58,539 bases of DNA from Verrucomicrobiota bacterium. GTDB lineage: Bacteria > Verrucomicrobiota > Verrucomicrobiia > Limisphaerales > CANJXF01. The position numbers were made by a program, and so were the translations under genes. Below, piece by piece: positions 158 to 57,102 of this stretch; the stretch's first letter is position 1, and each line of letters begins with the position of its first letter. The notes below the pieces were generated by a model that was given only the letters and a program-made list of their open reading frames with translations, did not search any database and had not been told where the DNA came from. The stretch is taken from positions 1 through 58,539 of the forward strand of contig JBBQRQ010000020.1 in the NCBI GenBank assembly GCA_038214755.1. Reading direction: 5' to 3'.

Positions 158-589
158 ATGAAAAATCGGTTGGTTAATAAACATTCACGTGCCTTTACCT
201 TAATTGAAATCATGGTCGTGGTAGTCATCCTCGGCATTCTGGCCGCGACGATTATTCCCCAGTTCATGGGCACAACCCACGACGCGAAAGTCAGCACGGC
301 CAAGTCGAACATCGCCGAACTCGAGTCAGCGCTGGAACGATTCTATATCCACCTGGATCGGCATCCTACCACGGAAGAAGGTTTGAAGGTATTGGTGGAA
401 GCGCCATCAGGCGAGGAATCGAAATGGCGCGGGCCTTACATCAAACTTCTGCGACCTGATCCGTGGGGACATCCTTACCAATATAAGGACCCTGGAACTC
501 ATCGCACCTCCGGCTTCGACTTATGGTCGCGCGGCGCGGATGGAGCGGACGGCGGAGAAGGAGATGGAGCAGACATAGGAAACTGGTAG
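158..589 (+). CDS. gspG: Type II secretion major pseudopilin GspG
   Basis: RA|FTLIEIMVVVVILGILA prepilin motif; WRGPY, DPWGHPYQY and SxGADG...DIGNW are GspG hallmarks. Confidence 0.95.
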   Translation: MKNRLVNKHSRAFTLIEIMVVVVILGILAATIIPQFMGTTHDAKVSTAKSNIAELESALERFYIHLDRHPTTEEGLKVLVEAPSGEESKWRGPYIKLLRPDPWGHPYQYKDPGTHRTSGFDLWSRGADGADGGEGDGADIGNW

Positions 590-591
590 GT

Positions 592-1257
592 ATGAGATTG
601 AATCTTTACAAAGTAAGTGGAGCGCGGACAGCCTTGTCCGCGTGTTTCGATACAGACGAAAACTCTGGCTTTTTCATCAGTTCGAGTTCACGCGGACAAG
701 GCTGTCCGCGCTCCTATCCATTAGGCTTTACCTTGATAGAGGTAATGGTCGTGCTAGTTCTCATTGCCATCATGAGCGCGGTGATCGTTTCAGAAATGAA
801 AGGCACCTATCAAGATGCGTTGCTGCGTTCTACCAGCAGGGAGTTAGTCAGTGTGATGAACCTGGCCTACAGTCGCGCCATCGCGATCAATCAGATTCAT
901 CGCGTCCGTATCGATAGAGATACCGGCAAATACATTGTCGAGAGACGGGTGCGGAGTGAGGGCCAACGATTTGATTTCGTCCCGGTCAATGATGTGGCGG
1001 GTAGTGAAGGAAAACTGGATCAACGCGTATCCATCCAGATTCGCGACTCTTCTGAAAGTGGTTCAAACTCCTCCGGACCACCCCTCGTTCCAAGGCCCGA
1101 ACATGACCTGACTAGTAACGACACTATTACCTTCTATTCCGATGGAACAGCCGACCAGCGGGAGATTTTACTTCAAGACCAGGGAGGTCATCGCCTTGGT
1201 CTGCAAATCAATCCCACCACCGCGCGCGTGCGAATCGTCGGAATGGAGCGCAATTAA
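592..1257 (+). CDS. gspH: T2SS minor pseudopilin GspH-like, with an extended leader
   Basis: ATG 2 nt after gspG stop; G|FTLIE at 724-741; C-terminal ITFYSDG motif; operon position. Confidence 0.85.
   Translation: MRLNLYKVSGARTALSACFDTDENSGFFISSSSRGQGCPRSYPLGFTLIEVMVVLVLIAIMSAVIVSEMKGTYQDALLRSTSRELVSVMNLAYSRAIAINQIHRVRIDRDTGKYIVERRVRSEGQRFDFVPVNDVAGSEGKLDQRVSIQIRDSSESGSNSSGPPLVPRPEHDLTSNDTITFYSDGTADQREILLQDQGGHRLGLQINPTTARVRIVGMERN
619..714. repeat. GGAG-type REP doublet, in frame in the gspH leader
   Basis: GGAGCGCGGACAGCCTTGTCCGCG and its exact inverted copy ending at 714; 96 bp = 32 codons. Confidence 0.9.
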
Positions 1258-1262
1258 CGTTC

Positions 1263-1685
1263 ATGCATCGCTCCGGATTTTCTTTAATAGAAGTCATGTG
1301 CGCCATTCTCATTTTGGGAATCGCGCTGGTAGGTCTTACTCAAGGCATCACTACTGCGCTGAGTTCGAGCAAAGAAACCGAACTCCAAACGTCCGCCGCC
1401 TTGATCGCCGCTGGCCAAATTGAAACCTTGCGCGCCGAGGACTATCTCGAGGATGGCATTACCGAGGACACGTGCGGCGACGACCTGCCCCTTTATCAAT
1501 GGACTCAAACTATTAGCAGCACCGACATAGACGGTCTCCATGAAGTAAAGGTCGTAGTCGAGAATGCAAATACCGGAAAAGAAATTTACGAACTGCGCAC
1601 GCTTCTCTTTGACCCGGACTACCCAGGTCAGGATGACGCCAAGGATAAGAAGAATAAGACCAGGAAAAAAGGAGCGAAGCTTTGA
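1263..1685 (+). CDS. gspI: T2SS minor pseudopilin GspI-like
   Basis: SG|FSLIEVM prepilin motif, short length, position between H and J. Confidence 0.85.
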   Translation: MHRSGFSLIEVMCAILILGIALVGLTQGITTALSSSKETELQTSAALIAAGQIETLRAEDYLEDGITEDTCGDDLPLYQWTQTISSTDIDGLHEVKVVVENANTGKEIYELRTLLFDPDYPGQDDAKDKKNKTRKKGAKL

Positions 1686-2638
1686 ACCTTCGACTCTCTA
1701 TATCGGCGGAGCGCGGACGTTCTCGTCCGCGTGTTCCGGGCGCGACTCGCGGACGAGAACGTCCGCGCTCCAATCCGCCATCGCTGCCGCGCTTCGCCGT
1801 GCGCCGCGAAGTCCTTCTCGCGTCGGCGGTGACAGTACATGGATTCAATGTGCGACAAAATTTTAGCAGAACCCCACATAACAAAGCAGGCTTTACCTTA
1901 ATCGAACTGGTCATCAGCGCAGCGGTGGCTGCCATGATTTTGACGGGCGCTTATATGTGTTTGAATGCTGGACTATCGAGTCAAAAGCTGATCGAGCCGC
2001 GCTCTGAAGTCGCGCAGAACGCCAGAGTAGCGTTGGCGATCATCACCGCTGATTTGCGCAGCGCTTGTCCTCTTTCTCAAGACTTCGACTTTCTCGGCAT
2101 GGATCGGATGATGGATGATGTCGAAGCTGACAACCTGGATTTCGCTACTCACAACTATACTCCACGTCGTCCGGGAGAAGGAGATTTCTGCGAGGTCAGT
2201 TACTTTTTGGAGAAGGACAAAGAAGGGAAGTTTAACCTATGGCGAAGGCGCAATCCTACCATTGCTCTTAATCCACTTGAAGGAGGCAGGCGGGAGGAAA
2301 TCGCGCGGGGGCTGCAAGGGTTGAGGTTTGAATACTACGACGGGTTCGAATGGTTTGACGATTGGGGCGACCTGGAAAAAAAGAAAAAGAAAAGCGACGT
2401 GTCCGATGAACCGAACCTTTCCGGGATGCCAGAAGCAGTGCGCATTACTTTGTCATTTGATCCCAACCCGGAGAAACCTACTCGCTCAACAGAAGCATCC
2501 GAGGCTCCTTTAGTTTTCCAAACCGTAGTCCGGTTGGAATTAACCAATGCTTCGGAAGATAATTCAAAAAGTGTTTCGAAAAATCCTTCCGCCGAAAGTG
2601 GATTACCGCCGAAAGCTGACAAAGGCGCAAACAATTAG
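1682..2638 (+). CDS. gspJ: T2SS minor pseudopilin GspJ-like, with an extended leader
   Basis: TTG start overlapping gspI stop with GGAG 7 nt upstream; AG|FTLIEL at 1886-1909; C-terminal YYDG..W...W...PEAVRITL typical of GspJ; start uncertain. Confidence 0.85.
   Translation: MNLRLSISAERGRSRPRVPGATRGRERPRSNPPSLPRFAVRREVLLASAVTVHGFNVRQNFSRTPHNKAGFTLIELVISAAVAAMILTGAYMCLNAGLSSQKLIEPRSEVAQNARVALAIITADLRSACPLSQDFDFLGMDRMMDDVEADNLDFATHNYTPRRPGEGDFCEVSYFLEKDKEGKFNLWRRRNPTIALNPLEGGRREEIARGLQGLRFEYYDGFEWFDDWGDLEKKKKKSDVSDEPNLSGMPEAVRITLSFDPNPEKPTRSTEASEAPLVFQTVVRLELTNASEDNSKSVSKNPSAESGLPPKADKGANN
1708..1771. repeat. GGAG-type REP doublet in the gspJ leader
   Basis: 24-bp arms GGAGCGCGGACGTTCTCGTCCGCG identical to the intergenic copy at 56994-57102. 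Confidence 0.9.
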
Positions 2639-2640
2639 CT

Positions 2641-4278
2641 ATGCGAAAGAACTCTGATTCCTCGATGTTTCTTGTGGATGAAGCAGGGGAGACAACCATT
2701 TTTTACCGCAAAGGACGCAAAGGTTTTCGCAGAGGAACGCAGAGTGACAACCTTCCCGCCGAGTTCTTTTTCTTTTGCTCCTTACTTTTGCGACCTCTGC
2801 CTGAACCTTCGTGTCCTCTGCGTTTAATCCGAGAACGCAGTATAGGCCGAATAGAATCCTATCACCCACCAGAAACGTCGAAGAAGCAGAACGCTTCCAT
2901 CCTGGTTGGTTTGCTTTGGTGCCTGGCGTTACTCTCAATGATTGTCATTGGACTTCTCCACACCGCGCGCTTGGATTTGTTGGTTGTGAAAAATCACGGC
3001 GACAGGATACAAGCGCATTACCTTGCGCTGGCCGGAGTCGAGAAGGCCAAGGCTCTTTTGTATCACGACATGCTGGAGCGCAGAGGCACCGCGAAGAATC
3101 ATACGGGCCATCTGTATGATGACGCAAAAGAGTTTCGCGCGGTTGGTTTCGGACGAGGATCGTTCAACGTTTTTCGTCGTGGTGGAACAGAGGAAGAAGG
3201 AATGGTGTTTGGCGTGAGTGATGAGGAAAGCCGTCTCAATCTCAACACTGCTTCCCCGGAAGAACTCACCAAACTTAATGGCATCACCCCCGATGTGGTG
3301 GCAGCAATTGTCGATTGGCGCGATGCCAACAATGCGGTTACGCCCAGTGGGGCCGAAGCAGAATATTATTCCTCGCTTCAACCTCCTTCCTTGCCGAGGA
3401 ACGGTCCTTTCCAAACCACCCGCGAACTTTTGATGGTGCGAGGTATTACCTCAGACCTTCTATTGGGAGACGGTAGCGATAATGAAGTGCCCGACCTTAA
3501 CGAAAGTAACAGCGGCTTAAAAAATTCAAGCGACTCGCGCGACCGTGGTTGGGCTGGCCTTCTCTGTGTCAACTCCTCCGTTGAAAATTTAAATGCTTCT
3601 GGCAAAGACCGCGTCAACATTCAATCTGCCGATGAAAAGGCTCTCTCCTCAATCAAAGGAATTTCTGCTCAACTCGCCAAAGTGATTATTGCCTATCGCA
3701 ACCAAAAACAATTTGAAAGTATCGCGGATCTCTTGGATGTCACCGAAGTGACGAACCAACCTGCGCCGCCAACTCCTTTTACCACTTCTACCTCAAGTGC
3801 CCGAAGCCGCTCCTCGTCCAACCCATCCAAGACTACTTCCAGAACTACAACCTCACAGGCCACGCGCACGGCGCAGCCCTCCGGCCCACGATTGATAAGT
3901 GACGACTTATTCATGGAGATCGCCGATGATGTCACCGTCAGTTCAGACTCGGCGCAGGAAGGTTTGATCAACATCAACACGGCAAGTCTCGATGTTCTTA
4001 TTTGCCTTGAAGGAATAGAACGAGATTTAGCTCAAGCCATTATTTCGCATCGCAAGTCCGATGGGTTTTTCCCGAACGTGGCCGCGCTCTTGAAGGTTCC
4101 TGGAATGAATCGCGAGATCTTCAAACAAATCGCGCCGCGCCTGACCGCCCGCTCAGAAACATTCCGCATCAGGTGCGAAGGGAAAGTTACTTCAACCGGG
4201 GCGCGTCAATGCCTTGAAGTCATCGTCCACGTTACCAAGTACGACATTAAAACGCTTTCCTATCGGGAGGATTTATGA
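2641..4278 (+). CDS. gspK: T2SS minor pseudopilin GspK with helix-hairpin-helix repeats
   Basis: Hydrophobic SILVGLLWCLALL segment, DEESRLNLN, AIVDWRD, three xN(I/L)N/QxA HhH units; ATG 2 nt after gspJ stop. Confidence 0.88.
   Translation: MRKNSDSSMFLVDEAGETTIFYRKGRKGFRRGTQSDNLPAEFFFFCSLLLRPLPEPSCPLRLIRERSIGRIESYHPPETSKKQNASILVGLLWCLALLSMIVIGLLHTARLDLLVVKNHGDRIQAHYLALAGVEKAKALLYHDMLERRGTAKNHTGHLYDDAKEFRAVGFGRGSFNVFRRGGTEEEGMVFGVSDEESRLNLNTASPEELTKLNGITPDVVAAIVDWRDANNAVTPSGAEAEYYSSLQPPSLPRNGPFQTTRELLMVRGITSDLLLGDGSDNEVPDLNESNSGLKNSSDSRDRGWAGLLCVNSSVENLNASGKDRVNIQSADEKALSSIKGISAQLAKVIIAYRNQKQFESIADLLDVTEVTNQPAPPTPFTTSTSSARSRSSSNPSKTTSRTTTSQATRTAQPSGPRLISDDLFMEIADDVTVSSDSAQEGLININTASLDVLICLEGIERDLAQAIISHRKSDGFFPNVAALLKVPGMNREIFKQIAPRLTARSETFRIRCEGKVTSTGARQCLEVIVHVTKYDIKTLSYREDL
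2657..2840. repeat. 9/10-bp-period inverted-repeat element (CGCAAAGGA type), in frame in the gspK leader
   Basis: Aligns by eye over about 180 bp with the reverse complement of intergenic 22382-22558; shorter copy at 49646-49737. Confidence 0.88.
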
Positions 4279-5774
4279 AGACTCCCAGCCTTGTGACTCC
4301 AACCGCTGTTTACTTCGAGATAAGCCAAAGCTCCATGAAAGTGCTTTATGGAAGTGAGACGCTGGAACTTCCGTTGGAGCGATTGCAGAACGGTCGCTTG
4401 AACGAAACTTGTAAGCAGCGCCTAACCTCAACCTTACGCGATTCGTTTAAACGAAAAAGTTGGCAACCCAACCTGCGGGGGGCGTGCGCGATAGGAGCCA
4501 GAGGTGTTTCTCTTCGCCGACTCACGCTTCCTTTATCCACGAAGGAAGAACTACAGCGGCTATTGTCTTTGCAGATTGAGAACGAGTTTCCGCTTCCACC
4601 AGAGCAACTCAGTTGGGGTTACGCAAAGGTTGAGCGGCAGATGTCAAAAGATTTTGGAGCGGCACAACAAGAAGTGGTCATTGTCGCAGTAAAAAAAGAA
4701 GTGCTGGATGACTATGCCGAAGTTTTTTCTGCGAGCGGAGTCAGCGCAACCTTTACTCTCGCGGCCCTTGCTCGGAATGCACTTGTCCTTAACCCACCCG
4801 ACACCTATTCGATCCTGGCTATTGGTCGAAGTTCTTCGGAAATGATTTCCTTGGACCATGGCGCGCCGAGTTCCATTCGGGTTTTGGCATGGGGAGAGGA
4901 AACAGTTGAGACGGCACTGAACCCGCTGGTCAGTGGTATCGATCCAAAGTGGATAGGACAAAAAATTTATCTTTGCGGAGAAAATGTTCGAGAGAGAAAT
5001 TACGCGGAACTCCTCGCTACTCAAATGGGCAATGGAGTGGAATGTGACTATTTGCCAGAGGGTGATTTATCCGCAGCCATTGCCGGACTGAAAAAGCTAA
5101 GTGAACCGGGAGTTGGCTTTATCCCTCTCACGTTCCAACTCAATGATACCAAGAGGAGCGAATACCTGACTCGATCTGCTGCGTGGAAATGGGCGGGGCT
5201 GGCCGCGCTACTCGCTTTCGCGCTACTGGTGTTTCCCTACATCGAAGCTTTGCTGCTCAAGGCAAGCCTGACGAAAAAACTTTCAACGATTCAAGCCGAA
5301 AGGAACAGGCTCGTCGTAATAGATCGAGAACTTAACTTTCTCCAAGACCTGAAGAAGAACCAATCCCCTTACCTTGACACCTTGTATCTCGTAGCGAACG
5401 CCGCGCCTGGTGGAACCCGTTTCGATTCCCTGACCATGAACCGGCGCGGTGAGGTTTCTCTCAAGGGCAACATGGGCAATGCGCAACAGGTCACGGAATT
5501 TCGGTCCAAGCTAATTGGCTCCGGCTTCTTCTCGACTGTCGTGGTGGATGAACAAACGCCTGGGCCGGACCGGCAGAAGTTAGCCGTGCGAATCACCGCC
5601 CAATGGAAACCAACCGGACGAAAGCCTATCACAGTCGATCCCGTTTCAAAAACCGAGAAGAAGGGTAGCGAGGGTAAGACAGAGATTGGGACAAGGAGTC
5701 GTTCATCCCGTATGCCAGAGGCTTCTTCTAATAGCGCAACGAACACCTTACCTTCGGGAAAAACCAACCAATAA
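4275..5774 (+). CDS. gspL: GspL / PilM-PilN-like inner membrane platform protein
   Basis: ATGA overlap with gspK; cytoplasmic domain with RRLTLP..QIENEFPLP, single TM, PilN-like C-terminus. Confidence 0.75.
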   Translation: MKTPSLVTPTAVYFEISQSSMKVLYGSETLELPLERLQNGRLNETCKQRLTSTLRDSFKRKSWQPNLRGACAIGARGVSLRRLTLPLSTKEELQRLLSLQIENEFPLPPEQLSWGYAKVERQMSKDFGAAQQEVVIVAVKKEVLDDYAEVFSASGVSATFTLAALARNALVLNPPDTYSILAIGRSSSEMISLDHGAPSSIRVLAWGEETVETALNPLVSGIDPKWIGQKIYLCGENVRERNYAELLATQMGNGVECDYLPEGDLSAAIAGLKKLSEPGVGFIPLTFQLNDTKRSEYLTRSAAWKWAGLAALLAFALLVFPYIEALLLKASLTKKLSTIQAERNRLVVIDRELNFLQDLKKNQSPYLDTLYLVANAAPGGTRFDSLTMNRRGEVSLKGNMGNAQQVTEFRSKLIGSGFFSTVVVDEQTPGPDRQKLAVRITAQWKPTGRKPITVDPVSKTEKKGSEGKTEIGTRSRSSRMPEASSNSATNTLPSGKTNQ

Positions 5775-5778
5775 TTTT

Positions 5779-6336
5779 ATGCGCGCACTTGCTCCCAATG
5801 AAAAACGCACCTTGCGTCGCGCGGCAATTGCTATTGCCATTTATCTGGTGCTCTTTGGGGGTTATCAGTGCTGGAAATATCTTAACGCAAAGCGAGTCGA
5901 TTATCGGAAGCTGGTTCAAGAAGCGAACACCATCAAACGGGAAGTTCAGCCCTATCAGGAAAAAGCCTCCGTCGTAAAAACATTGATGGAAAGTTTTCGC
6001 CTCGACCCGGCCAGGCTCTCCAAAAGTTCTATTGTCGCCGATGCCAGCGCCGCGATTCAAAAGGCGGCGACCAGTGGTGGAGTTCAACTCGGTCCTATTC
6101 GAGAAACATCTGCGCGTTCGTCCAACAAGGAATTAGCCAACATGCAAATCGAAGGTTCAGGTCCCGTCCCTTCACTCATGGCCTTCTTGCACAACATTCA
6201 GAGTCTAGGCTATCCGCTGGTGATCGACTCGATTCAAATTCATGGTGACCCGTCGAAGCCCGGCGCGGTCAAGGTAAGCCTCACCATTCTCATCCTGGAT
6301 TTTGACCAGTGGAAGAAAGAGACGCCCAATGCTTGA
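5779..6336 (+). CDS. gspM: GspM / PilO-like protein
   Basis: LxxxEKR plus TM helix, coiled coil, ferredoxin-like end (LMAFLHNIQ); follows gspL. Confidence 0.7.
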   Translation: MRALAPNEKRTLRRAAIAIAIYLVLFGGYQCWKYLNAKRVDYRKLVQEANTIKREVQPYQEKASVVKTLMESFRLDPARLSKSSIVADASAAIQKAATSGGVQLGPIRETSARSSNKELANMQIEGSGPVPSLMAFLHNIQSLGYPLVIDSIQIHGDPSKPGAVKVSLTILILDFDQWKKETPNA

Positions 6337-7114
6337 ACGCTACGAAAAAGTTTTGAAAGTCGTCTGCCTGGTGCTGGCGGCGCTCATGTTATTCCAATTG
6401 ACGCGATTGGTCTTTGGGAGAAGTCCGCTTGCTGGAGTCATTGTTCCCGCGTTGCCGACATTGCCGGTGACGGAATCGGCTAAAACCAATTTGGCGTCAG
6501 TGACAACAGGTCAAAGGAAAGGAACGAATTCCGCGCCGGAATTGAAATCGAAAACGAACGAAACAAATACTGTCTCTCACTTGGTAAAACAGAACACCAA
6601 CTCAGGCTCCGGGCTAGCGAAAACCAACGCGGTTCTACTTACAAAAAGTAAAGAGACCAATTCGGTCGGACAAATTAAAGAGACGAATACTATAACGATG
6701 AAAGAATCGGGAAAGGGAAGTAACTCTCTTTTATCTCCAAAAGGAATGAGTTCTTTCCCCCGCTCGGAAGGAGGGAAGAAAGCAATTGAACTTCCGCCTC
6801 CCATCCAGGCCCGGGTGGACAAGATTACTCAGAGTGAAATTTTAGCGCCAGTGGTCCGCCCGCTGCCGATGGCTCTCCTCGGCATCGCTGGCGAGAAGGC
6901 CTTTCTTCGCTCGGCCAATGGGCAGACCGGCGTAGTCAAGGAAGGCGAAGAAGTGGGCGGGTTGAAACTTTTGCGGATAGGAATCAATCGAGTGTTGGTG
7001 GAACAAGACGGAGAAAAAAAAGAATTGATGGTCTTCTCCGGCTTCGGCGGTGAATCGCTTTTGCCCAAAGAAAAAGAAAAGAAAGAAACCAATGAAACGA
7101 CTAAAAAACTTTAA
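6329..7114 (+). CDS. GspC-like membrane-anchored T2SS protein
   Basis: N-terminal TM, T/N/S-rich linker, C-terminal LLGIAG...VKEGEEVGGLKLLRI..NRV HR-like domain directly before the secretin. Confidence 0.6.
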   Translation: MLERYEKVLKVVCLVLAALMLFQLTRLVFGRSPLAGVIVPALPTLPVTESAKTNLASVTTGQRKGTNSAPELKSKTNETNTVSHLVKQNTNSGSGLAKTNAVLLTKSKETNSVGQIKETNTITMKESGKGSNSLLSPKGMSSFPRSEGGKKAIELPPPIQARVDKITQSEILAPVVRPLPMALLGIAGEKAFLRSANGQTGVVKEGEEVGGLKLLRIGINRVLVEQDGEKKELMVFSGFGGESLLPKEKEKKETNETTKKL

Positions 7115-9938
7115 CCTGAAATTTCTGGCAGCAGCCATTTCCTGCTGTCTCGCCGGGATAATTTTCTTCTCTTCGCCGGACGCAATGGGCGAAGGCGCCA
7201 AGAAAGCCGCCCGAAAAAAACGCTCACTGGAATCGGAGTCCACCACTAATTCCGCGCCGAAAACTGCCGAAAACGTTTCCACGAATGATTCTCCATCGTC
7301 CACCAACGAGCTTGCAGCCGCGATAAAATCAGCCGGAAAAAAATCATCACGAAAAAAAGGAGCGGCGAAAGCGAACGACGATAAAATTTCCGCGACCAAC
7401 GAAATCCAGTTGAGTTTTCAGGGCGCGAACATCGACATGATTGTGCAATGGCTCGCGCAGACGACGGGCAAGAGCGTGGTCAAACATCCGAAGGTTCAAT
7501 GCCAGTTAACCATCGTTGGCTCGAAGAAAGTGACGCCTCGAGAGGCGTTGAACCTGGTTTATCGCGCGCTCGCACTGGAGGGTTTTAGCGTCGTGGAATC
7601 GAGCAAAGCCATTTTGATTGTGCCCGAGGGACAGGAGCCGAAGACGAGTCCGGAGATGATCGGCTCAGAACAAACGGGCGTGCCCGAAGGACGGCAGCGG
7701 CTGGTCAAAGTTTTCAAGTTGAAACACATTCAAGCCGCGAGCGTAAAAGAAAAAATTAAAACGCTCCTCTCCGAAAAAGCGACGGCGGATGTCGATGAAC
7801 GAGCCAACCAACTGATCGTCACCGATTACACGGATAACATCGTGGTGATCGGCAACCTGATCCGCGTTCTCGACACGGATAATCCCGAAGACATTACCAT
7901 CCGCGTCATCCCATTAAAAAATGTGAACGCGGTGGATCTGGCCAAGGAGGTCGGCCCGCTTTACCAGAAAATGGGTGGTGGCAAAGAAGGCAAGGAAACC
8001 GCTCCGAAAGAAACGGTCGAGATCACGGCCAACGACCGTTCCAATTCTTTGATTATTTATTCCAGCGAAGCGACTTTCAAAATAATCGAAGCGCTGGTCG
8101 CCCGGCTCGATACGGAAGAGGCGCAGGAAAAAATCATGCGCACTTTTCCGCTGAAAAATGCCGACGCGCAGGATGTCGCCAAACAATTGCAGGACCTCAA
8201 TCAGGATCAGGATAGTTCTCCCCGATATCCTTTTTATTATTCCTTCTCCTCGATGGGCCAAAATAAAGCCGCAAAAAAAATGAACGTGGTCGCCGACCGC
8301 CGACGCAACACGGTCATCGTCCAGGCGCCTCCTGCGGCGATGGAAAATATAGCGAAGATGGTGGAGAAGCTCGACGAAGCCGCCAACGACGACAGTCTCG
8401 CTCCGAAAATTTTTCCGCTCAAGTATGTCAGTGCGGGAGACATCGAAGATATTTTGAATGAACTTTTTTTGAAAAAGCAGCCGAGCCGAAGTTATTGGAA
8501 TCCATTCAGCGGTGAACCGGAACCATCCAACACTGATCGCGATGTCGGACGACTTTATGGGAAAGTCCGCGTGACCAGTGAACCTCACGCCAACGCACTT
8601 ATTGTGACGGCGAACTCCGCCGAAAACCTCGCGGCGGTCGAAGATGTTTTAAAACAATTAGATGTTCCGTCCGAGGCGGGTGAAACGACATTTCGCATCG
8701 GCTTGAAATTTGCCAAAGCCGCGACGGTCGCCAACAGCATCAACATTCTTTTTGCCAAAGGAGGTTCGCCGGGATTGCGATCCGTTGCGCCGCCCGGACA
8801 ACCTGGAAGTCAGTCGCAGCAGCAGAATCAAAATACGTCGGCGCGGACTAATTTTGAATTGGAACAGGAAGCAAAGGAGGAAGGTTATTTTCCGTGGCTG
8901 GGCGGACAGCCGGAGAACCTTCGCGGCGCGGATGGACGCAATGTGCTTCGGACGGCGAGCGACCTGGTGGGCCGCGTTCGCGTGGTGCCGGACCAACGCA
9001 GCAACTCCCTTTTGGTTTCCGCCAATGTTCATTTTTTTCCCCAAGTGTTGAGACTGATTGAGGACCTCGATGCGCCGACCGCCCAAGTATTGATCGAGGC
9101 AAAAATCGTCGAAGTCTCCACTGATTACCTCGACAAGCTGGGTGTTCGCTGGTCGCCGGACGGGAGCAAAACTTTTACGGCGGACGACTTTGATAATTCC
9201 CTTATTGCCAGTTCGCGTGGCCGTTATCAAAAAGGTTTCGGCGGCAAAACCAGCGTGAACAATCCACTTTCTTCGAGCACGGTCGCGGCGGCCGTCACGA
9301 GTTTGCGCAGCGGCACTTTGGACAACACGATCAGCATGGAATTCCTCGTGCAATTTCTTCGCCGGACCACCGACGCCACCGTGCTGGCTGAACCTCAGAT
9401 CAATATTTCCGACAATGAACTCGGCAAACTTTTCGTCGGACAACAAGTCCCGACGCTCACCGCGCAGAACAATCCCGCGCTCGGCGGCACGAGCCAAAGT
9501 TTTGAATACAAAGATGTGGGCATCATTTTGGAAGTGACGCCGCACATCAATAATTCCGGCGACGTTGCGCTAAAAATCCGCACTGAATCCTCCGCGATTG
9601 TTCCGGGACAAACTTTGTTCGGAGCGGCGGTGATCGACTCGCGCAATTTCCGCACGGATGTTTCGGCCAAGAGCGGCCAGACGCTGGTGCTGGGCGGCAT
9701 TATTCAAAAACAGATTTCGGATACGTTGCGTAAGACGCCGATTCTGGGAGACATACCCGGATTGAAATGGGCGTTTAACAAAAAGGACAAGCTGAGCCGC
9801 CGGGTTGAGTTGATGGTTTTCCTGCGCACCACCGTCGTGCGCACGGCGGAAGAAGCGAAGGAGTTGCTGGAGGACGTGGAAAAGAAAATTCCGCTGATAA
9901 AAAAATCGAGAGAAATCAAACCGGAAGATTCCAGATAA
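7092..9938 (+). CDS. gspD: Type II secretion secretin GspD
   Basis: N0 domain, repeated D.R.N.L N-domains, QVLIEAKIVEV, GQTLVLGG, PILGDIPGL secretin motifs. Confidence 0.95.
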   Translation: MKRLKNFNLKFLAAAISCCLAGIIFFSSPDAMGEGAKKAARKKRSLESESTTNSAPKTAENVSTNDSPSSTNELAAAIKSAGKKSSRKKGAAKANDDKISATNEIQLSFQGANIDMIVQWLAQTTGKSVVKHPKVQCQLTIVGSKKVTPREALNLVYRALALEGFSVVESSKAILIVPEGQEPKTSPEMIGSEQTGVPEGRQRLVKVFKLKHIQAASVKEKIKTLLSEKATADVDERANQLIVTDYTDNIVVIGNLIRVLDTDNPEDITIRVIPLKNVNAVDLAKEVGPLYQKMGGGKEGKETAPKETVEITANDRSNSLIIYSSEATFKIIEALVARLDTEEAQEKIMRTFPLKNADAQDVAKQLQDLNQDQDSSPRYPFYYSFSSMGQNKAAKKMNVVADRRRNTVIVQAPPAAMENIAKMVEKLDEAANDDSLAPKIFPLKYVSAGDIEDILNELFLKKQPSRSYWNPFSGEPEPSNTDRDVGRLYGKVRVTSEPHANALIVTANSAENLAAVEDVLKQLDVPSEAGETTFRIGLKFAKAATVANSINILFAKGGSPGLRSVAPPGQPGSQSQQQNQNTSARTNFELEQEAKEEGYFPWLGGQPENLRGADGRNVLRTASDLVGRVRVVPDQRSNSLLVSANVHFFPQVLRLIEDLDAPTAQVLIEAKIVEVSTDYLDKLGVRWSPDGSKTFTADDFDNSLIASSRGRYQKGFGGKTSVNNPLSSSTVAAAVTSLRSGTLDNTISMEFLVQFLRRTTDATVLAEPQINISDNELGKLFVGQQVPTLTAQNNPALGGTSQSFEYKDVGIILEVTPHINNSGDVALKIRTESSAIVPGQTLFGAAVIDSRNFRTDVSAKSGQTLVLGGIIQKQISDTLRKTPILGDIPGLKWAFNKKDKLSRRVELMVFLRTTVVRTAEEAKELLEDVEKKIPLIKKSREIKPEDSR

Positions 9939-12363: not shown

Positions 12364-12551
<188 letters not shown>

Positions 12552-22381: not shown

Positions 22382-22558
22382 CTGGGGTTCCCGGATTAAA
22401 CGCGAAGGACGCGAAGGTTCACGCAGAGGTCGCAAAGGGGAGTAGGTAAGAGAAAAGAGCTTGTGCGGAAGATTCTCACTCTGCGCTCCTCTGCGAAAAC
22501 CTTTGCGTCCTTTGCGGTAAAAACGGGTTGTCTCCACTACTCAAGAAACATCAAGAAC
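22382..22558. repeat. 9/10-bp-period inverted-repeat element, intergenic copy
   Basis: Reverse-complement match to 2657-2840. Confidence 0.88.
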
Positions 22559-49645: not shown

Positions 49646-49737
49646 TTCAACGCAAAGGTCGCAAAGGTTTTCGCAGAGGAACGCGGAGATGTGACCTTTG
49701 CGTCCTTTGCGAGAACCTCCGCGTCCTCTGCGTTTAA
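49646..49737. repeat. 9/10-bp-period inverted-repeat element, short copy
   Basis: AACGCAAAGGTCGCAAAGGTTTTCGCAGAGGAACGC...CCTCTGCGTTTAA. Confidence 0.85.
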
Positions 49738-49840
49738 ATGGAAACTTCTGCCAACAATAGAAAAAATTTTGTCGGAGATACCCGGGTCGTCCTCGGAGTA
49801 ATCCATCGAACCAAAATCGATTTTCTCCTCCACATCCCAA

Positions 49841-56993: not shown

Positions 56994-57102
56994 GGAGCGC
57001 GGACGTTCTCGTCCGCGAGTTCGGCGTCGAATTTGAAGCATAAATTTCTGAGTCAATTCGTACCAGCGATTGTCCACTCGCGGACGAGAACGTCCGCGCT
57101 CC
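56994..57102. repeat. GGAG-type REP doublet, intergenic
   Basis: 27-bp perfect inverted repeat; core identical to the gspJ leader element. Confidence 0.92.

Follow-up and report, generated by a model that had tools for sequence, protein, structure and literature searches.

How can palindromic repeats persist in frame within the genes of a tightly coupled operon? The question is raised by a type II secretion operon in a stretch of 58,539 nucleotides from a Verrucomicrobiota bacterium of the order Limisphaerales (GenBank assembly GCA_038214755.1, contig JBBQRQ010000020.1), hereafter termed the window, which is contig C20 of a 5.1 Mb genome with 97% completeness. Three minor pseudopilin genes, gspH, gspJ, and gspK, carry repeat elements between the start codon and the predicted prepilin peptidase site. 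Rechecked coordinates agree with a preliminary description of the window, in which the frames stay open and encode leaders of 45, 70, and 85 amino acids (aa), respectively, versus 12 aa in GspG and 5 aa in GspI. Judging from sequence comparisons, we consider it probable that these leaders act as a neutral sink, in which in-frame repeats are translated, cut off by the peptidase, and retained as neutral passengers. The prepilin leader likely grows in this way to several times its textbook length.

Repeat elements in the gspH, gspJ, and gspK leaders

The gspH leader holds a 96-bp doublet with inverted arms of 26 nt at 619-644 and 689-714 (100%). Removal of this core leaves a leader of 13 aa, which had been called ordinary and corresponds to the modal length among orthologues (17/68). 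The flanks at 609-618 and 715-725 resemble those usual for the family; the exact ancestral gspH leader is thus not certain, about 10 nt per side of the core being flank-like. Four codons separate the element from the cut site. In a set of 71 elements, many of the 96-bp doublets are enclosed by an outer inverted shell with about 30 bp on either side, of which the gspH copy keeps the innermost part only.

The gspJ leader is a nest of two elements. A 64-bp doublet of the gspH family, albeit of another subtype (arms 1708-1734 and 1745-1771, 27 nt, 96%), abuts a second, decayed doublet of the GTAG type. The best match of the latter spans 1813-1864 (13-16 BLAST hits), and its family, which is GTAG-headed, comprises 171 exact arms. 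Thus, the single element per leader that was initially reported holds for gspH and gspK, but not for gspJ. GTG 1829 and GTG 1850 lie inside the best-matching part of the decayed doublet and GTG 1799 inside its wider bounds, while the repeat consensus reads GCG at the position of GTG 1850.

The gspK element is a nested palindrome, the outer ends of which (near 2657-2680 and 2864-2888) are inverted. While the first limits of the gspH element and the 64-bp gspJ element stand, those of the gspK element (2657-2840) have to be extended to about 2888. The element matches 22387-22541 of the window over 155 nt (83%). This copy, the only one examined in this respect, is bracketed by a direct repeat of 5 bp, found at 2648 and again 240 nt away at 2888, and removal of the 240-nt span leaves a 5-aa leader, the modal length among orthologues (23/77). 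The element ends about 7 nt ahead of the cut site. As previously reported, neither gspH nor gspK has an ATG, GTG, or TTG in the stretch from element to cut site; within the elements, in-frame near-canonical starts are found at TTG 634, ATG 2665, GTG 2674, and TTG 2788. The 64-bp and 184-bp units, as first delimited, have lengths not divisible by three.

All three elements are predicted to fold strongly, with RNA folding z-scores of -8.6, -6.1, and -5.5 for gspH, gspJ, and gspK and none of 200 shuffles as good. The net charges of the GspH, GspJ, and GspK leaders are +2, +12, and +5, including +1, +2, and +1 in the last ten residues, and a single patch of moderate hydrophobicity (Kyte-Doolittle 2.05) is present in the GspK leader. 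Rfam yields three weak hairpin matches (27-37 bits versus cut-offs of 70-80), none of them above threshold. A promoter and terminator scan finds two promoter-like sites versus 3.0 in shuffled sequences, with no listed site within the elements. Contigs from one DNA sequencing run, possibly of the source sample, are identical to the window over 539-648, 709-1713, 1707-2728, and 2721-3300; they contain no joint that skips a whole element, and the interior of the gspH element is unbridged in the pieces examined.

The gspJ and gspK families recur elsewhere in the window, as had been noted before. Throughout the genome, a k-mer mask marks about 1,700 repeat elements, with 1323 of 1698 non-coding when all families are pooled. 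The gspH/gspJ family accounts for 213 exact arms and the gspK family for about 41 loci. In the gspH/gspJ family, the arms measure 26-27 nt, are each self-complementary, and form 77 short inverted pairs, across which no consistent target-site duplication is found. The genome has 17 matches to Y1 transposases, 16 of them over the cut-off. A RAYT gene on contig C13 is enclosed by the gspJ subtype and one on contig C37 by the gspH subtype; their NF047646 scores are 94 and 99.7 bits, respectively, against a cut-off of 80. Because their subtypes bracket NF047646-positive RAYT genes, the gspH and gspJ elements are classified, on this genomic context, as repetitive extragenic palindromic (REP) doublets of the REPIN kind, and the family has presumably been spread by RAYTs. 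The arm foot reads GTAG in 10, ATAG in 19, and AAAG in 54 of the 213 arms, GTAG being present on some RAYT-flanking arms. Y1 domains also occur inside open frames of 970-1440 aa (C33:16136-16378, C64:10402-10626, and C88:19561-19815), which suggests RAYTs fused in frame to host genes.

The inner arms of the gspK family flank a GxxExxY / PD-(D/E)XK gene on contig C14. GxxExxY is the only enzyme gene found between gspK-family arms, RAYT genes not having been checked one by one. As a general mobilizer of this family it was rejected, since only one of three GxxExxY genes has the arms.

Frame retention and enrichment of repeats in prepilin leaders

The operon leaves almost no intergenic room, as its genes start on or beside the upstream stop; the ATG codons of gspH and gspK both lie 2 nt past the stop of the preceding gene. 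We compared this arrangement across 87 loci, comprising the window, 80 further loci, and 6 from single-protein searches. Of the 401 genomes of the order, 85 have this gspJ; among the 84 besides that of the window, one (G185) was left out, as was the gspJ contig of G002. For each gene, we measured how far the conserved core lies from the upstream stop, excluding junctions whose upstream gene is missing or cut, which have no anchor, or whose distance falls outside -60 to 900 nt. The three leaders of the window were scored repeat-positive by hand. As related genomes are not independent, p-values from this set are overstated.

At least 75 nt separate junction and core at 73 of 320 gspH-K junctions, and 63 of these 73 read in frame from a start no more than 25 nt away from the upstream stop. 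In contrast, 4 of 249 junctions of the control genes gspF, gspL, gspM, and gspC reach this length, with none in frame from the junction start. In gspH-K spacers of at least 100 nt, the pilin frame is stop-free in 47 of 51 cases versus 17 and 15 for the other two frames. Moreover, 19/21 long gspJ spacers and 7/7 long gspI spacers retain the frame set by the -4 overlap.

The same pattern holds for spacers with a detected repeat. Repeats occur in 30 of 320 gspH-K spacers; the pilin frame is open in all 30 and each of the other two frames in 11, and a start at the upstream stop is present in 28 of the 30. The 249 control junctions contain three repeats, which lie before gspF or gspL and outside the gene, and none keeps the junction start in frame. 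Matches to the repeat library number 17 in 20 kb of spacers versus one in 240 kb of mature pilin DNA. The longest inferred leader among the orthologues reaches 143 aa. Long leaders carry Gly or Ala at position -1 in 42/42 cases, and their last ten residues are never net negative (42/42) and mostly net positive (39/42). Across the 87 loci, Ala replaces Gly at -1 in 124 of 392 pseudopilins.

This orthologue comparison, proposed in the preliminary description, also bears on an alternative in which the repeats are mostly untranslated, being intergenic or part of a dispensable 5' stretch ahead of downstream or non-canonical starts, and the open frames are due to chance or are relics. Many N-terminal REPs were judged by Di Nocera et al (2013; PMC3733652) to reflect such misannotated starts. 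Against it stand the pilin frame, open in every repeat-positive spacer versus 22/60 for the other frames, the three control repeats out of frame from the junction, and the short distances between element and cut site in gspH and gspK. We regard this alternative as unlikely.

Repeat acquisition is recurrent. In 21 loci, which come from 13 family codes and one metagenome record, 36 pseudopilin genes carry repeats, and the repeat families differ from lineage to lineage. On a GspI+J tree, carriers (18/79 rows) are scattered and require 18 changes, versus a mean of 16.4 after shuffling; well-supported branches force at least 8 of the 18. The two nearest orthologues on this tree have short gspH-K leaders. 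A DNA search of eight same-genus genomes found no alignable empty site, and the empty-site argument is based on leader lengths at the protein level. One locus (L043), from a record titled Candidatus Saccharimonadales, nests among the genomes of the order in GspI+J, reflecting misbinning or transfer.

Could the insertions instead have crippled their genes, with the operon now decaying? The leaders are two to three times as long as the longest described (26 aa), and strong hairpins begin 26-27 nt past the gspH and gspJ start codons. However, all nine frames from gspG to gspD are open, mature GspH, GspJ, and GspK are 54-77% identical to their two nearest orthologues, and the GspI+J end branch of the window is short (0.12 versus a median of 0.25). 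The frame is kept in every repeat-positive case, unlike the expectation for decay, which we therefore regard as highly improbable. The N-methylation motif directly follows the leader in GspG, GspH, GspI, and GspJ (Pfam; PF07963 above cut-off). GspK has T2SSK domains (Pfam), and its Ala(-1) and hydrophobic start are conserved in orthologues. PilD, the prepilin peptidase of this genome, is intact with both Pfam domains.

Within the genome, we compared 97 genes with a prepilin motif (98 minus one false motif) to 707 control genes with cores defined by paralogues. The two sets do not differ in how often a repeat is found in the 300 nt upstream (28/97 and 208/707). In 7 of the 28 pilin genes, the repeat is located between the nearest start and the core and is thereby forced into the frame, versus 4 of the 208 controls (p = 4e-5). 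The enrichment over other coding 5' ends that was suggested as a test is thus present, and a second method gives 8/29 pilins versus 16/664 cytoplasmic-type genes. Per kb, leaders contain about 1.8-2.0 elements, coding interiors 0.047 (150 in 3.17 Mb), and non-coding DNA 2.5, corresponding to an approximately 40-fold enrichment of leaders over coding interiors. Thus, leaders behave as intergenic DNA under frame constraint. The roughly 150 in-frame elements inside called genes include several in some single genes.

Two further pilin operons of the genome display repeat-built leaders, of 30, 46, and 107 aa (L136, 598-2876) and of about 55, 129, and 156 aa (L137, 283-5701). Most of their long leaders start on or near the upstream stop, and one carries the gspH family.

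For Sec and lipoprotein signal peptides, an extension of this pattern is suggestive only. A loose test is significant (29/444 versus 16/664 cytoplasmic-type genes), yet a strict test is not (10/306 versus 3/134, p = 0.76). None of 56 evaluated gspD signal regions has a detected repeat. By eye, many of the cytoplasmic matches of the loose test appear to be false positives with the real start just downstream. Inspection also reveals about 20 plausible in-frame repeats, including the gspH/gspJ family, in predicted Sec/lipoprotein n-regions on contigs C70 (L133), C36 (L134), C11 (L135), C46, C24, C17, C16, C12, C130, and others. In addition, a few apparently cytoplasmic enzymes seem to begin with a repeat-encoded N-terminal extension (C30, + strand, 46352; C92, - strand, 11321).

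Table 1. Repeat elements and genes of the gsp operon in the window.
Feature	Position	Strand	Remarks
REP doublet (REPIN-like), 96 bp	619..714		in frame in gspH leader; perfect 26-nt inverted arms
REP doublet, 64 bp	1708..1771		gspJ leader; same family as gspH element, other subtype
Second, decayed GTAG-tagged REP doublet	~1772..1875 (outer bounds approximate)		gspJ leader; right arm and tail best kept (1813-1864)
Nested palindromic element, ~230 bp	~2657..2888		gspK leader; outer inverted ends around inner hairpin (~2702-2828)
gspK-leader family copy	22382..22558	-	elsewhere in window
gspK-leader family, short copy	49646..49738		inner hairpin only
gspJ-leader family copy, 109 bp	56994..57102		elsewhere in window
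gspG-H-I-J-K-L-M-C-D	158..9938	+	nine genes, all frames open
gspG, major pseudopilin	158..589	+	leader 12 aa, repeat-free; Pfam T2SSG, N_methyl
gspH, minor pseudopilin	592..1257	+	leader 45 aa (592-726); predicted cut between Gly and Phe at 726/727
gspI, minor pseudopilin	1263..1685	+	leader 5 aa, repeat-free; TGA overlaps gspJ TTG
Shine-Dalgarno-like AGGAG	1670..1674	+	7 nt ahead of TTG 1682
gspJ, minor pseudopilin	1682..2638	+	leader 70 aa (1682-1891) from coupled TTG 1682; alternative GTG 1850 gives 14 aa
gspK, minor pseudopilin	2641..4278	+	leader 85 aa (2641-2895); predicted cut between Ala and Ser

In orthologous operons, gspE-F are located upstream of gspG. Among the genome contigs searched, the closest match to GspJ is 75% identical and belongs to a Limisphaerales genome. 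At about 3760-3890, GspK has a Ser/Thr/Pro-rich low-complexity linker between helix-hairpin-helix repeats. A long heptamer tandem array occupies 12364-12524 of the window, and related heptamer elements build other pilin leaders in the genome.

Start sites, expression, and insertion preference

Several observations speak against a neutral sink of translated repeats. In only 14 of the 30 repeat-positive spacers are the last 20 codons before the cut site free of any start. The other 16, which favor downstream initiation, have a near-cut GTG or TTG (9/30) or ATG (7/30), and some of them resemble an intact ancestral short leader. A junction start is missing in two of the 30, and among the long gspH spacers 8 of 26 are out of frame from the junction. 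Leader charge (p = 0.064) and hydrophobicity (p = 0.54) are not significantly different from those of the other frames. Predicted leaders of 45-85 aa exceed the range of 6-26 aa given in one review of class III signals (PMC4471445). In gspJ, GTG 1850 yields an ordinary 14-aa leader and could be a rescue start. In the genome-wide test, the gene calls, core positions, and repeat masks are our own heuristics. Finally, 7-8 elements are found in leaders versus 1.4-3.3 expected from a frame filter acting on the intergenic density (P 0.05 to 1e-4); strict neutrality does not fully explain this excess, which leaves some room for targeting or later frame repair.

The start codons have to be weighed gene by gene. 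Downstream starts are possible for gspJ and for about half of the orthologous cases, but not plausible for gspH and gspK of the window. For gspJ, the earlier concern about a downstream start is weakened by TTG 1682, which coincides exactly with the place where the gspJ start overlaps the gspI stop in 71 of 82 orthologues and is preceded by AGGAG. A Shine-Dalgarno-like word ahead of the junction start is present in 58 of 79 gspJ orthologues. The alternative offered by GTG 1850 nevertheless stays.

The preliminary description had also raised the possibility that the mRNA hairpins are kept to tune expression, by ribosome slowing, coupling, or mRNA decay, and set the ratio of minor to major pseudopilins. 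Very stable hairpins (-48 to -73 kcal/mol) are indeed found in three minor-pilin genes of the window and none in its gspG, the number of leader elements slightly exceeds the neutral-filter estimate, and REPs and miniature inverted-repeat transposable elements (MITEs) are described to affect mRNA stability elsewhere (PMC3733652, PMC2229807). Across orthologues, however, the minor-pilin bias that tuning predicts is absent, as gspG is repeat-positive in 6/72 and gspH-K in 30/320 cases (Fisher p = 1.0). Tuning further predicts conservation, whereas about 90% of the orthologous junctions have no detected repeat and the carriers are scattered on the tree. Families, lengths, and positions of the repeats vary as well, with stems ending 4-179 nt from the cut site. 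The orthologue data thus do not support this proposal, and we consider tuning improbable. A strict hairpin exclusion zone after the start codon is not clear, as 2 of 23 stems begin within 10 nt.

The excess of leader elements is also what would be expected if the mobilizing enzymes had evolved to target prepilin leaders or cleavage-site codons and so to exploit a site erased by the host. In addition, flank-like bases of the gspH element reach the Gly(-1) codon. Yet many unrelated families are involved (REP doublets, heptamer arrays, and the GxxExxY-linked type), and the 77 elements share no target duplication. Repeats are also no more common upstream of pilins than of other genes, and in the eight forced cases of this genome, 9-63 nt separate the final repeat base from the cut site. 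A fixed insertion point at the cut site was rejected on these variable distances, and targeting in general appears very improbable to us.

The neutral sink reading joins these findings as follows. In other species, targeting through SRP (signal recognition particle) and Sec relies on the class III signal, and peptidase cleavage takes place after Gly/Ala at the inner face of the membrane. RAYTs would spread gspH/gspJ-family elements through the genome, and selection would have purged the insertions that break a frame of the coupled operon. Translation likely begins at the conserved start on the stop of the upstream gene. After membrane insertion, PilD would remove the repeat-built leader, leaving the mature pilin unchanged, and the long leader would be degraded. 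As its content never reaches the product of the coupled operon, in-frame, stop-free insertions likely survive in the leader. Its dispensability is taken from two reviews, which describe the class III leader as hydrophilic, ending in Gly or Ala, staying cytoplasmic, and being the sole part that the peptidase removes (PMC10191384, PMC4471445). In the former, leader length is called variable. The proteolytically erased safe haven envisaged in the preliminary description is thus supported by the enrichment and frame tests, with translation and cleavage as its predicted steps.

A bolder version would regard N-terminal leaders that can be cleaved off, chiefly those of class III prepilins and to a weaker degree Sec/lipoprotein n-regions, as a safe harbor that mobile repeats actively favor. 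Erased by the host like an intron at the protein level, such leaders would let selfish DNA colonize coupled operons, with the prepilin peptidase handling 45 to more than 150 residues. We view this extension as doubtful.

Known systems and implications

Among known repeats, a close parallel is provided by the intragenic GTAG REPs of the verrucomicrobium Opitutus terrae and other bacteria, RAYT-linked palindromic singlets and doublets that also occur in frame, as outlined by Di Nocera et al (PMC3733652). The N-terminal cases mentioned above are seen there as likely misannotation, whereas here conserved starts retain the frame and the peptidase is predicted to remove the insert. A term search of the supplementary lists of intragenic REPs returned no "pilin" or "methylation" entry. 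Rickettsia palindromic elements (RPEs) and MITEs, as described by Delihas (2008; PMC2229807), are likewise mobile palindromes translated in host proteins with neutral or mild effect. RPE peptides, however, stay in the mature protein and form a distinct sequence family, while in the present case a cleavable leader is the shared destination of several unrelated families. The likeness drawn here is one of behavior.

The gspH and gspJ elements share with REPINs and bacterial interspersed mosaic elements (BIMEs) the two inverted short palindromes, the variable spacer, and the flanking RAYT genes (NF047646). REPINs are classically extragenic. They have a GTAG foot, whereas most gspH/gspJ-family arms lack a strict one. 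The pseudopilins themselves agree with the described class III signal peptides (PMC4471445, PMC10191384) in their hydrophilic leader up to Gly/Ala, hydrophobic helix, Glu5 (absent in GspK), and PilD-type peptidase. In contrast to the 6-26 aa described, the leaders inferred here measure 45, 70 (or 14), and 85 aa, with up to 156 aa elsewhere in the genome, and are built from mobile DNA.

We found no report of repeats in prepilin leaders in the open-access literature, subscription journals and bioRxiv supplements being outside this search. The leader repeats are a real, recurrent, and apparently unpublished form of the known phenomenon of intragenic repeats, and most likely neutral. The proposed mechanism is one of tolerance rather than a new machine. 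On this reading, the leaders would show where non-autonomous repeats can persist in coupled operons and provide an internal yardstick for insertion rates. For annotation, pilins of this kind may be overlooked or truncated in repeat-rich phyla by tools expecting short leaders. If the neutral sink reading is true, prepilin peptidase and SRP/Sec targeting would accept arbitrary leaders three to six times longer than those described. The repeats would then constitute a natural saturation test, according to which a class III leader needs little beyond an open frame, non-negative charge near the cut site, and Gly/Ala at -1.

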